Positions 4,930 through 37,850 of a stretch of DNA of 64,000 nt are shown in pieces. The notes under the pieces were generated by a model. The model was not told the origin of the DNA. It saw only the letters and a program-made list of their open reading frames with translations, and made no database searches. A program made the translations under genes and the position numbers. Source of the DNA: a virus (taxonomy: Duplodnaviria; Caudoviricetes). Within the stretch, counting starts at the first letter, position 1. Each line of letters opens with the position of its first letter. Location: the IMG/VR virus record IMGVR_UViG_3300025372_000001. One strand, written 5' to 3'.

Positions 4930-5610
4930 ATGAAAAAATTTCTTGCAGAATATCAAAGATTATTAACAGAAGCAGAACAACCACCTTCTCCTCCTGGAGC
5001 AAATAGTATGGGACAAGCCCCTGCTCCCAACGAAGGCGAACAAGGAAGTCAATCTGCTGATGAAGATAATTTAGATGAAGAACCTATTACGGACGTAGAA
5101 GATCGTCCTGTTTCTCCTGAAGAAATTGAATTGGCAAAATTAGCAGTAAGGGCATTATATTTTAATACTGATTCAAAAGATGTTCATCAATTTTCCCTTA
5201 AAGTAGGAGATGATCGTATTCCTTTTGAAAAGATTCCTGATTTCTATGAAGCAACTAAACAATGGAAACCAGTTATTGCTTTCGTTGAATATGTAATGGA
5301 TAAATTTGAAGGCTTTTCTTCTAAATGGACCGAACAAGATGATATTAAAGGAAAGAATATTTTAGATAAAATTAAATTGTTTAATAAGAAAGCAAAAGGT
5401 GATGAAAAATTAGACAATGGCAAAAGATTATATTGGATAAGAATTATTCTTAATTGTCTGTTACATGGAAAACCTACGGAGAATTTAACTATTGCAGATG
5501 TTAATGAGAAGAATATTAATGAAATATTTGATATGTTGAAAATGCATTATGGTATGGATACCAGAGGATTAACCCCTGGAAAAGATGTACGTGCTCCCGG
5601 TATTTTCTAG
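4930..5610 (+). CDS. late hypothetical protein, candidate internal head protein
   Basis: TATAAATA 4911-4918; N-terminus MKKFLAEYQRLLTEAE. Confidence 0.8.
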   Translation: MKKFLAEYQRLLTEAEQPPSPPGANSMGQAPAPNEGEQGSQSADEDNLDEEPITDVEDRPVSPEEIELAKLAVRALYFNTDSKDVHQFSLKVGDDRIPFEKIPDFYEATKQWKPVIAFVEYVMDKFEGFSSKWTEQDDIKGKNILDKIKLFNKKAKGDEKLDNGKRLYWIRIILNCLLHGKPTENLTIADVNEKNINEIFDMLKMHYGMDTRGLTPGKDVRAPGIF

Positions 5611-7604: not shown

Positions 7605-7949
7605 ATGGATTTAACTAATTTTACAGAATTCGATGTATTCGATTTAAATCCGAAAACTTTTAATCTCCTCACCTTAAGAGATTATAAAGAATAATTAGAT
7701 GATTATATGTTAGATGATTGTTCTAAATTGGTGAGGATTTTCAGGAAATATGATTTATTTATCAATCCTATGCAAGCCTATTTTATATGGCTTGAACGAT
7801 CCGCTGCATATAATGCAACATGGTTAATTGATATTGAAGAAGTTACTGATATTAATGATAAGAATCAAACTGATGCAATCATGCGCAGTATTATCCGCTT
7901 TACAGATTATTTGATTTATGAACCTTATAAGGAGGGTTACAATGATTGA
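7605..7949 (+). pseudogene. hypothetical gene split by in-frame TAA (7692-7694)
   Basis: ATG 7605 reads 29 codons, then TAA, then continues in the same frame as the 7707-7949 ORF. Confidence 0.5.
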
Positions 7950-10071: not shown

Positions 10072-10629
10072 ATGATTAACTATAAACTTTTAGATGATTC
10101 TATCAGCTTTTATACCTCGAAAGGTTATAACAGAATCGAAGCACCCTGGACCACTTCTGAGTATATTAATAATATTACTGCTCCGAAAGGAGTAACACAA
10201 TTTCAATTTAAACATAATGATAAATGTTTAGTTGCATCAGGAGAACAATCGTTTTTATATCTTTATCTTAAAGGGTTTCTCCCTAAAGGTAAGTACCAAA
10301 CGACCACTCCGTGTTTCCGAATGGAAACATTCGATCTTACTCATACCAAATACTTCATTAAGAATGAGTTAATTATTACTGATGATGTAAATTTGGACAA
10401 TTTGTTAGATATGGTTTCATATGCTAAAACGTTTTATTCTCGCTATTTAAACAATGTTACCAAAGAAAAGACTGAGAATGGGTATGATTTGGTATGTAAG
10501 GGCGTTGAATTAGGCTCTTATGGAATTAGACGCTGCGAATTCTTAGAATGGATATATGGTACTGGATGCGCAGAACCGAGGTTATCCACCGTTATTAAAT
10601 TACAAAATAAAAGATATGGGCTATCATAA
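10072..10629 (+). CDS. minimal class II aminoacyl-tRNA-synthetase-like catalytic domain
   Basis: Motif 1-like KGYNRIEAPW, motif 2 PCFRME...YFIKNEL, GVELGSYG, motif 3 GTGCAEPRL; only 185 aa. Confidence 0.75.
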   Translation: MINYKLLDDSISFYTSKGYNRIEAPWTTSEYINNITAPKGVTQFQFKHNDKCLVASGEQSFLYLYLKGFLPKGKYQTTTPCFRMETFDLTHTKYFIKNELIITDDVNLDNLLDMVSYAKTFYSRYLNNVTKEKTENGYDLVCKGVELGSYGIRRCEFLEWIYGTGCAEPRLSTVIKLQNKRYGLS

Positions 10630-36294: not shown

Positions 36295-36522
36295 ATGTTA
36301 TTCTGGATCATTTTATTAATTTTAATTTATTCTTTTGGCGGTTTTTATTTTATGCGGGATTACTATCAAAGATGTTATCTTTCAGGAAGTTTACCTTTTA
36401 ATGGTTCAATGATAAAATTCGTAGGATTTTCTTTGATGTTGGGAGTTTTCACGGCATATTTGTGTATTGTTTCGTTTGTTGTGATATTTTGGCGGTTGTT
36501 GAACGAAATTTGTAAAAAATAA
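36295..36522 (+). CDS. small membrane protein (2 TM)
   Basis: Two hydrophobic segments. Confidence 0.6.
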   Translation: MLFWIILLILIYSFGGFYFMRDYYQRCYLSGSLPFNGSMIKFVGFSLMLGVFTAYLCIVSFVVIFWRLLNEICKK

Positions 36523-36553
36523 TTGACATTGGATAATATAGGTGATATAGTGA

Positions 36554-36698
36554 ATGGCACTGGTAAGCCTCTCTCATCAGGAGGCGGATGATGAAGAACA
36601 CTGAAAATATACAAAATTGTTAATTTGAAAACATAATAATCTAGTAAAAAGTTTTCCTTTTTGTAGAAAATAAGAGAATGTTCATCCAGTGTAACCAT
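36554..36698 (+). ncRNA. candidate structured ncRNA
   Basis: TTGACA-17nt-TATAGT upstream; 5'/3' ends pair (CACTGG/CCAGTG); GCCTC/GAGGC hairpin; GGATGA/TCATCC. Confidence 0.4.
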
Positions 36699-36910
36699 TT
36701 CAGAAAATAATTAAAAAATAATTGACATGAAGAATAAATATGGTAACGTATAGACGTTGTTAGTTGGTAGTAGTTCTTGATAAAGCATTCCTACGAGATG
36801 AACATCTGGCTAAAATAATCAAGAGGGTCTTGATGTTGATGCCGCTTAATTTGGACAAAAATAAGATGCTGTGAATGTTAGCAAAATTCGTAACAAAGGT
36901 AAATTTAAAT

Positions 36911-37002
36911 AGCAGGGTAGAGAAACAGTTGATCTCGTCGGGTTCATATTCCGAAGGCTACTCAAAAGCGCATAATTGGTGCAACACCAGCCCCTGCAAC
37001 CA
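36911..37002 (+). tRNA. atypical initiator-type tRNA-Met(CAT) with a 20-nt variable region
   Basis: AGCAGGG/CCCTGCA acceptor with 1:72 mismatch, ACCA end, TCGGG-TTCATAT-TCCGA anticodon arm; degenerate T loop TGCAACA. Confidence 0.75.
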
Positions 37003-37850
37003 TTCAATAAAAATATCAAATTCTTTTTGGACAAATTTGGGATTAAATTTACCCATGTCTTTTATGGTGTACGCGGTATAACCAACCTTTTCTATTTCGC
37101 TAATTTTTATTTTATCTCTGTTTTGAACTTGAGCGACCGAATGTTTATCTTTAATTTTCTTATAGTGCCATGCTCCGTTCCATAGTATAGCGATTCCGTA
37201 GTATGGAATAATTACATCTGCGTCCCACCCATTAAAAATAGGTTGATTTGTTTTAATATGTAGTCCGACTTGTTCGCATTTCTCCGCAAAAAGCGTTTCA
37301 TTCTTGCTTCTTCTTGTGTGCTTTTGAGAAGCGGCAGAGTTTCGACCACCTCTTCGTGCTCCGTCTAACCTAATAGAATTAGTGCATTCTATGCTACAGG
37401 TTTTCTTTAAACGGGTAGTTGCGATAAAATCTTTCTTACAGCACTCGCATTTCTTAAGAATATTGAAAAACGAACTAGGTTTTTTATATAGAGGTTTGCA
37501 TTCGGTACAAACCCTGCCATTTTTTCGAGAATTTGGTGAAACAGTAATGTTATTATTACAGTTAACACAATTTGTTTCTATAAATTTACCCTTTAATGTA
37601 AATCCTTTTTTAATACGTTCCGCATTATTATGGATTGCTCCACAAGATAATGAACAAAATAAACTATTTTTATATTTAACGAGATAGGGGGTATTACATT
37701 GTTTACATTCTGCATATTTGTGTTCTTTTTAGGCGGAACATAATTTTTAAAATTACAATGAAATTTTCCATTACAGGATTTAGAACAAAATAAATTAGGT
37801 TGTCCAGGTTTATCAGAAAAGAAAGTATTACAGAATTTACAATTAGCCAC
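36958..37850 (-). pseudogene. Zn-finger-repeat PD-(D/E)xK/Vsr-like homing-type endonuclease, frameshifted near 37728
   Basis: GTG 37850 frame joins a 256-codon open -1 frame (37728-36958) with RSKNE...WDADVII...ILWNGAWHY...QVQNRD; four CxxC..CxxxC repeats across both frames. Confidence 0.8.

Follow-up and report, generated by a model that had tools for sequence, protein, structure and literature searches.

A putative phage-specific class of initiator-type tRNA(CAU) with a bulged T stem

The initiator tRNA is among the most uniform RNAs of bacteria, and its textbook description includes neither an enlarged variable loop nor an interrupted T stem. Its identity is set by the anticodon CAU and the discriminator base A73 for methionyl-tRNA synthetase (MetRS), and by a mismatch at 1:72 together with the pairs 2:71, 3:70, and A11:U24 for formylation. 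Initiator tRNAs of normal length are common in phages, for example the tRNA-Met of Caulobacter phage RB23 and of Arthrobacter phage Talia1610. The subject of this study is a tRNA gene at positions 36911-37002 (+) of a 64,000-nucleotide stretch of viral DNA (Duplodnaviria; Caudoviricetes; IMG/VR record IMGVR_UViG_3300025372_000001), which is referred to as a whole as the window. We read it, with a probability of roughly 0.55, as a working gene of a phage-specific structural class of initiator-type tRNA(CAU).

Other described tRNAs depart from the standard form. Class II tRNAs have their extra arm on the inner side of the L and nevertheless work on the ribosome. A bulge nucleotide, 51a, is present in some (8/4) tRNA-Sec and in SelC* tRNA-Cys, which are described together with allo-tRNAs and with the occurrence of irregular tRNAs in phage clusters (Mukai et al., 2017, PMC5389517). 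The tRNAs of Lak megaphages carry short, highly conserved 'enigmatic' introns, for which the removal route is unexplained (Devoto et al., 2019, PMC6784885). A review of non-canonical tRNAs mentions neither initiators nor phages (PMC7609411), and a full-text literature search, with most subscription journals outside its coverage, found no description of an initiator-type tRNA design with a bulged T stem.

The window gene belongs to a family of 34 distinct sequences on phage contigs. Like the bacterial tRNA-fMet (E. coli metZWV/metY type), the family has CAU in a CUCAUAA-type loop, an unpaired 1:72, G2:C71, C3:G70, A11:U24, A44 G45 G46, A73, and CCA. Unlike tRNA-fMet, its members are 83-104 nt long instead of 74-77 nt, their T stem is interrupted by a bulge of 5-6 nt plus a bulged U, and the variable loop of the long form comprises 12-15 nt instead of 5. 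Furthermore, the three G-C pairs of the anticodon stem are rarely complete (4 of 34), and the subgroup to which the window belongs has A18/G55 where tRNA-fMet has G18/U55.

As in class II tRNAs (Leu, Ser, Tyr), positions 45 and 48 are separated by extra nucleotides that emerge on the inner side of the L. In contrast to class II, the family has no covarying variable-arm helix; at most two to three potential pairs, all invariant, compete with the T stem, and the hallmark of the family is a bulged T stem that is also found alone with a 5-nt loop. With the 51a-bulge tRNAs it has in common that a base at the 51/52 step of the T stem, on the 5' strand, is left unpaired. Its acceptor/T split is 7/5, not 8/4 or 9/3 as in tRNA-Sec, SelC*, and the allo-tRNAs, and position 8 cannot pair with 65; moreover, unlike in tRNA-Sec and SelC*, the interruption amounts to 6-7 nt in two parts and is combined with a CAU anticodon and an initiator-like body. 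The Lak introns are likewise short conserved inserts in phage tRNA genes, and the tRNA island of Prevotella phage Lak-C1 contains the closest homologue of an endonuclease encoded beside the window tRNA. Unlike the Lak introns, the inserts of the family are two short pieces, one in the variable loop and one in the T stem, of which one base covaries as part of a stem pair. The simplest reading is that the mature RNA retains them.

The window gene and its relatives

At 36911-37002 (+), ARAGORN calls a 92-nt tRNA-Met(CAT), as the original prediction, which had proposed a check with tRNA finders, would lead one to expect. The program returned zero tRNAs from 30 dinucleotide-preserving shuffles of the window (1.92 Mb in total). 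The G+C content at the site is 50%, compared to about 32% across the window. The features of the gene are as follows.

36911-37002 (+): whole gene, read as a 92-nt initiator-type tRNA(CAU) of the bulged-T-stem phage family, CCA encoded
36911-36917 (+): 5' strand of the acceptor stem, pairing with 36992-36998; A1 opposite A72, unpaired, with six pairs below
36920-36936 (+): D arm, stem GAGA/TCTC (A11:U24), 9-nt loop AACAGTTGA without the usual GG, read as A18 G19
36938-36954 (+): anticodon arm, TCGGG / TTCATAT / TCCGA, CAT at 36945-36947, G31.U39, U32/U38
36955-36967 (+): expanded 13-nt variable loop AGGCTACTCAAAA, A44 G45 G46 kept, final base read as position 48
36968-36979 (+): 5' strand of the interrupted T stem, pairing with 36987-36991; GC (49, 50), bulge GCATAA, T pairing with A63, bulged T, GG (52, 53)
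36980-36986 (+): T loop TGCAACA (T54 G55 C56 A57 A58 C59 A60)
36987-37002 (+): 3' end, with the T-stem 3' strand CCAGC, the acceptor 3' strand CCCTGCA, discriminator A73 (36999), and CCA

The individual elements listed in the original prediction (92 nt, A1.A72, the TCGGG stem, CAT, G31.U39, A73-CCA, and the TGCAACA loop) are thus all present, and its description of an initiator-like tRNA-Met with extra nucleotides agrees with the sequence as well as with the relatives. The Rfam tRNA model RF00005 (gathering threshold 29 bits) gave no match at 36911-37002 even at E ≤ 10; annotation with standard covariance models would therefore overlook the gene. For comparison, the other tRNA of the window (Glu, 46049) scored 62 bits with the Rfam tRNA model, and L017, a family member with a standard T loop, 32.5 bits. 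A covariance model of the family (R1) scored the window tRNA at 96.7 bits (E ~1e-22). The tRNA locus, including a frameshifted endonuclease gene that overlaps it, is identical in at least five independent assemblies from different samples (L002-L006 among them), one of which is a 262-kb contig.

Several searches for relatives gave no diverged homologue. The neighbouring 136-aa protein is an ORFan for which protein search returned no relatives, exact sequence look-ups of the locus returned identical copies only, two DNA patterns built on the window's own anticodon arm had no matches in IMG/VR, and a megablast search with a 24-kb query had none among cultured phages. A DNA ligase gene 3 kb downstream led to four related contigs, and two of these (L012, L013) have unusual CAT tRNAs directly upstream of the ligase. 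A pattern uniting the anticodon, GGCTA, and the 3' end then retrieved true homologues from IMG/VR, to which later patterns added members from JGI metagenomes and IMG/VR. Two cultured phages are represented, as identified by BLAST: gene 105 of Microbacterium phage Cece, annotated as a 90-nt tRNA-Met, and gp207 of Streptomyces phage BRock, an 84-nt tRNA-Met of the shorter form.

A family-specific pattern, run once over the genomes of 185,579 bacterial and archaeal species (one genome each), gave only three chance matches, none of them a tRNA. As far as these searches reach, the family is phage-specific. The homologues are ordinary members of arrays of 22-40 tRNAs, typically 8-15 nt from the neighbouring tRNA genes. 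In 19 distinct long-form relatives, the variable loop is conserved as AGGCUA..AAA(C/A). A further 14, BRock included, have a normal 5-nt variable loop together with the same bulged T stem; judged from this distribution, the T-stem bulge is therefore the common hallmark of the family and the long loop is an addition.

Four members of marine type (L039:2373-2474(-), L041:33-134(-), L042:1941-2044(-), and L043:2339-2440(-)) have an extra 3-bp hairpin in the D loop. Its 4-nt loop is GAAA in three and UAAC in one, and its stem shows a compensatory change from G-C to U-A. ARAGORN called none of these four.

Further unusual CAT tRNAs were also seen. The positional orthologues in L012 (9794-9880(+)) and L013 (9556-9642(+)) have an unbroken 5-bp T stem, C1.A72, and UGGCUAAGUCCCUC as a variable loop of 14 nt; the CUAAGU motif sits in the loop, not in the T stem, and they score only 43-44 bits with the family model. 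In relatives of the window phage, a second odd family of CAT tRNA-like genes, 75-78 nt in size, is located 9 nt upstream of the long tRNA (L012:9711-9785(+), L032:2716-2792(-), L011:408-486(+), and L013:9474-9547(+)). Its T loop is of the UUUGAUU type in L012 and L011 and UUCGAUU in L032. The L011 copy looks degenerate, with an anticodon loop of 9-11 nt, and contains CTTAAGTGG, which resembles the bulge motif.

Folding and conservation of the extra nucleotides

The fold was assessed in two alignments: 17 hand-checked sequences in a plain MAFFT alignment (A2), and the 34 distinct sequences aligned to the family model (A3), a procedure in which the fit to the model somewhat favours A3. In A2, the cloverleaf was 99% paired and 13 or 14 pairs changed on both sides, a level reached by none of 500 shuffles. 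In A3, 99.4% of the cells were paired, with compensatory change in 15 of 20 pairs; again, 0 of 500 shuffles reached this level, and the pairing in slid controls was 43-51%. The covarying acceptor pairs across the family are 2:71, 4:69, and 6:67, and all five pairs of the anticodon stem covary. The comparison of relatives for compensatory changes, which the original prediction had advised, proved decisive.

The variable loop of the long form consists of A44 G45 G46, CUAC..AAA, and a final base that behaves as position 48, changing together with base 15 from G15/C48 to A15/A48. The T stem of the family is laid out as G49:C65, C50:G64, a 5-6-nt bulge ending in AA, a pair between base b6 and position 63, a bulged U, G52:C62, and G53:C61. 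At b6:63 (alignment columns 79/92), G:C was found in 29 sequences, G:U in two, A:U in two, and U:A in one, which is the window; the pair was open in none.

Other foldings were tried and rejected. A G51:C63 alternative (model A) is weaker than b6:63 and fails in the window, and it is impossible in the 14 short-loop relatives, BRock included, which have A or C at position 51. The continuous TTGG/CCAG T stem of the ARAGORN reading and a 6-bp triloop hairpin proposed by RNAfold each fit the window copy only, not the relatives. A pairing between loop and bulge (ACU/AGU) is broken in the window, L037, and L035. An 8/4 or 9/3 split between acceptor and T stem would require T8, which faces C65, to pair, which it cannot, and the acceptor stem of seven pairs covaries, 1:72 aside. 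For CAUAAG as a GAAA-tetraloop receptor, the opposite strand is absent. An intron-containing tRNA was likewise discarded: the anticodon loop is an intact 7 nt, the inserts of about 8 and 6-7 nt lie in the variable loop and T stem, and there was no match to an Rfam intron.

The original prediction had assigned the additional bases to one 20-nt variable region with a possible GCT/AGC stem. Extra bases there are, whereas a single variable arm is at odds with the relatives, which show a 13-nt loop followed by an interrupted T stem. For a class II arm of at least three pairs, only GC/GC, plus a U-A in the window subgroup, can pair. The candidate variable-arm pairs, the GCT/AGC stem among them, are all invariant and overlap the T-stem pairs 49:65 and 50:64, with which they compete; a mutual-information scan detected no covariation.

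The sequence of the extra module was conserved where the stems had drifted. Eight metagenome matches were retrieved by a pattern that set no constraint downstream of GGCTA, and all eight carry GCGCA(T/C)(T)AA(G/A)TGG. Among the same eight, all five anticodon-stem pairs and most of the acceptor pairs differ. Rows from retrieval patterns that fixed parts of the insert were excluded from this argument. Co-conversion from the neighbouring endonuclease was considered as a cause and rejected: the stretch that separates the insert from the endonuclease gene, the acceptor 3' strand, also varies, and gene conversion from that side therefore does not account for the conservation of the insert. We read the block of loop, bulge, and T arm as being under purifying selection for its sequence. 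The earlier suggestion of a decaying gene sits poorly with these data, as no other part of the molecule is as conserved as the insert across the 34 distinct relatives.

On this comparative evidence, the window carries a genuine gene under selection, and its product represents a novel structural form of phage initiator tRNA.

Initiator identity and competing explanations

The window tRNA has the identity set of MetRS, with CAT at 36945-36947 and A73 at 36999, and the formylation determinants A1.A72, G2-C71, and C3-G70. It departs from the class I size, which comprises a 5-nt variable loop and a 5-bp T stem without interruption. Across the family, CAU is present in 34/34 and A73 in 27/34 sequences. 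Position 1:72 is mismatched in 29, a U.G wobble in one, and a U-A pair in four, and the anticodon loop is CUCAUAA in 29/34. A11:U24 was found in 33/34, a count that includes sequences retrieved by a pattern fixing the D arm. The best matches of model R1 outside the family are canonical phage initiators of normal length (57-59 bits), while other tRNAs remain under 39 bits. The complete genomes of Cece and BRock each have a near-full tRNA set in which, apart from the family member, no tRNA is of the initiator type.

If these established identity rules apply, host MetRS would charge the tRNA with methionine via CAU and A73, and formyltransferase would formylate it via the 1:72 mismatch, 2:71, 3:70, and A11:U24. 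The variable loop and the T-stem bulge would lie on the inner side of the L, and use in the ribosomal P-site should be compatible with them, because class II arms emerge from the same side and work on the ribosome. EF-Tu contacts the T-stem face. Binding to EF-Tu would be poor owing to the 1:72 mismatch and the bulge, and the module would reinforce the exclusion from elongation because its additions sit on the face that EF-Tu binds.

Whether the window copy itself is intact was judged against L032, a contig syntenic with the window, on which a 92-nt orthologue is flanked by the large structural gene and the ligase. The two differ at 16 positions. Ten of these form five compensatory pairs (2:71, 27:43, 28:42, 29:41, and b6:63); of the remaining six, one turns G31-C39 into G.U and five are located in loops, so that no change breaks a stem. 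The unusual D loop without GG and the unusual T loop are of a type common to L032, L031, and the Lak-C1 tRNA, all of which have A18 and G55, and the tertiary pair 19:56 is maintained, as G-C in the window and L032, as A-U in L031, and as U-A in L028. The elbow of the window tRNA therefore appears to be rewired rather than lost, a conclusion that is less secure than the stem counts, as it depends on the alignment of short D loops. Judged by these comparisons, the window tRNA has diverged and remained intact, its derived traits being the A18/G55 elbow, G31.U39, and U32/U38.

The Lak-C1 gene mentioned above (L001:2889-2971(-), MK250029.1) is an unannotated initiator-like tRNA(CAT) with the T loop TGCGACT and a D loop starting with AACAG. 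It is of the A18/G55 type like the window tRNA, and overlaps the 3' end of the Lak endonuclease homologue on the same strand.

Several observations weigh against a working initiator. The pairs 29:41, 30:40, and 31:39 are all G-C in only 4/34 members, with two G-C pairs in 20, and the window has G29-C41, G30-C40, and G31.U39. According to one publication (PMC6393288), the three pairs are important for P-site selection of bacterial initiators and for initiator function in E. coli. The contig L035, with 40 tRNA genes in 14.9 kb, encodes a canonical 77-nt initiator (5182-5258) as well as the long form (7836-7926), the 5' halves of which are clearly paralogous; the long form may therefore do something else. 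The elbow of the window tRNA is non-standard, the Rfam tRNA model rejects the gene, and in the closest relative, L011, the site holds no more than a degenerate tRNA-like sequence of 78 nt. These points indicate a locus in flux. In addition, the retrieval patterns that fixed parts of the insert inflate the apparent invariance in the rows concerned.

A folded RNA that is not used for initiation, but serves as a tRNA-shaped decoy or regulator that blocks a host anti-phage enzyme or binds a phage protein, is a possibility to which we assign a low probability. The insert sequence is more conserved than any stem, as a binding site would be, and both the incomplete set of G-C pairs in most members and the canonical initiator in L035 would suit such a role. 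Phage tRNAs that evade anticodon nucleases have been published (PMC10264068). A pure decoy, though, needs neither the acceptor end, the discriminator, CCA, nor the anticodon loop, all of which are kept initiator-like, and it is difficult to reconcile with Cece and BRock having no other initiator-type tRNA. The decoy and translational roles are not mutually exclusive.

Somewhat less probable is that the family is functional and the window copy a recently disabled hitch-hiker, a pseudogene carried along by the endonuclease cassette. The missing Rfam match, the odd D and T loops, G31.U39 and U32/U38, and the frameshift in the adjoining endonuclease gene would be explained in this way, and L011 shows that a degenerate tRNA-like sequence is possible at the site. 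Yet random decay of the stems would be expected to break pairs; instead, the stems covary, and the changes between the window and L032 are compensatory, wobble, or loop changes. Nor does random decay of the T loop agree with the occurrence of the same loop type in L031, L032, and the Lak-C1 tRNA-like gene with the 19:56 pair kept, which marks the unusual loops as traits of a lineage rather than private damage. The identity of the sequence in at least five assemblies from different samples also speaks against recent disablement.

We consider it quite improbable that the extra bases act at the DNA level, as self-immunity against an endonuclease, or are removed as tiny introns of the Lak type. 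Such roles are suggested by the endonuclease genes of PD-(D/E)XK (window, L037), GIY-YIG (L032, L018, L028), and HNH type (L031) that abut family members, and by the position of the window's endonuclease family on an initiator-like tRNA in Lak-C1. Conserved tRNA inserts with an unexplained removal route are known from Lak phages (PMC6784885). Immunity would, however, require only disruption of a site, not a sequence that is conserved across phages in which every stem has drifted, and many copies have the next tRNA 8-15 nt away and lack an endonuclease gene in their vicinity. To remove separate inserts of 8 and 6-7 nt, two excisions would be needed, and we know of no bacterial or phage route that achieves this. 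Moreover, the covariation of one 'insert' base with position 63 places that base within the RNA fold.

A false positive of ARAGORN, with a cloverleaf arising by chance in AT-rich DNA, might be suspected from the missing Rfam match and the open reading frame (ORF) that reads the region antisense, and is refuted for practical purposes by the empty shuffles, the 34 distinct homologues with covarying stems, and the G+C content of the site.

Mobile neighbours and biological meaning

An endonuclease gene overlaps the 3' part of the tRNA gene, and promoter-like sequences precede the latter.

36958-37728 (-): homing-endonuclease-like main frame, with Cys-repeat fingers and a Vsr/DUF559-like PD-(D/E)XK end according to its translation
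37726-37850 (-): N-terminal part of the endonuclease in another frame, GTG start at 37850; a -1 shift would join the main frame
36713-36728 (+): predicted promoter-like -35 box, second copy of AAAAAATAATTGACAT, about 180 nt upstream of the tRNA
36517-36532 (+): predicted promoter-like first copy of AAAAAATAATTGACAT, with a TATAGT -10 box (scan score 11/12)

The main frame of the endonuclease has 256 codons (37728-36961); the final 14 of these, together with the TAG stop (36958-36960), run through the tRNA gene in antisense. At 37725-37733 (-), the gene contains the -1 shift site CCT AAA AAG, a slippery run of the A AAG type. Owing to the frameshift, the gene is missing from the ORF listing. 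The shifted sequence is identical in at least five independent assemblies and is therefore not an assembly error; both programmed slippage and a fixed pseudogene are possible. Recoding of TAG as glutamine, as in Lak phages, was considered and rejected, as it does not open the region and the long ORFs of the window are open under table 11. Pfam gave only weak matches of the window endonuclease to NinG and DUF559. The protein is 38% identical (E 1e-47) to an ORF in the tRNA island of Lak-C1 and 35% identical (E 2e-40) to an ORF of L037, which overlaps a family tRNA antisense in the same manner. Beyond the endonuclease and the family tRNA, L037 has nothing in common with the window.

Other endonuclease types accompany the family elsewhere. 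A GIY-YIG gene (SegE-like, NUMOD3) follows the tRNA of L032 by 8 nt, homologues of this gene are found just upstream of the family tRNA in L018 and L028, and HNH genes flank the tRNA of L031. The closest relative of the window, L011 (about 90% identity in the flanks), is devoid of the endonuclease gene and of the gene for the 136-aa protein. From presence, absence, and arrangement, tRNA and endonuclease gene appear to move as a cassette, and homing-endonuclease genes probably move the tRNA between phages.

Free-standing homing endonucleases of the T4 segB type are known from phage tRNA clusters. As with these, GIY-YIG, HNH, and PD-(D/E)XK genes adjoin or overlap the family tRNA, and the cassette is present in the window and absent from L011. 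In contrast to the segB type, the same endonuclease family lies antisense over the 3' end of the same tRNA family in the otherwise unrelated window and L037, and the window copy is frameshifted.

L011 retains the leader upstream of the tRNA (36712-36916) with 69% identity, and the AAAAAATAATTGACAT copies may function as promoters. The first promoter-like site is followed by a G+C-rich unit (36554-36705) with a strong AGGAGG and then an 11-codon ORF (ATG at 36588). This unit is absent from L011 and recurs with 84% identity in L032 (1762-1916), between the GIY-YIG gene and the ligase. Elsewhere in the window, 10072-10629 (+) encodes a 185-aa protein with sub-threshold Pfam matches to tRNA-synt_2 (24.2 bits) and tRNA-synt_2d (18.9 bits), which are class II aminoacyl-tRNA synthetase cores.

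Returning to the reading as a working initiator-type tRNA, the module might be a specific handle, because its sequence is conserved while the stems drift: it could be read by a phage factor, or block a host enzyme that attacks or senses initiator tRNA. The original prediction had suggested a nuclease-resistant initiator or a decoy, which may apply here; the window-specific U38 and U39 would flank the site at which VapC cuts initiator tRNA. More generally, we offer as a tentative proposal, and one that is more doubtful than the reading itself, that the module marks the phage initiator against that of the host, either for recognition by a phage factor or as a shield against an enzyme, host-encoded or phage-made, that inactivates ordinary initiator tRNA. 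If this were true, protein synthesis during infection could start on a private initiator supplied by the phage, which would constitute a new layer of translational takeover, spread among phages by homing endonucleases.

The structural class suggests that the initiation machinery tolerates, or that the phage exploits, a substantially remodelled initiator. Since Cece and BRock can be grown, charging, formylation, exclusion from EF-Tu, ribosome binding, and a role in anti-defence are directly testable. As family members score around or under the threshold of the Rfam tRNA model, it is probable that annotation misses phage initiator tRNAs. Through the link to homing endonucleases of three families, the locus and its relatives would also provide a concrete case of selfish nucleases moving a component of translation between unrelated phages.

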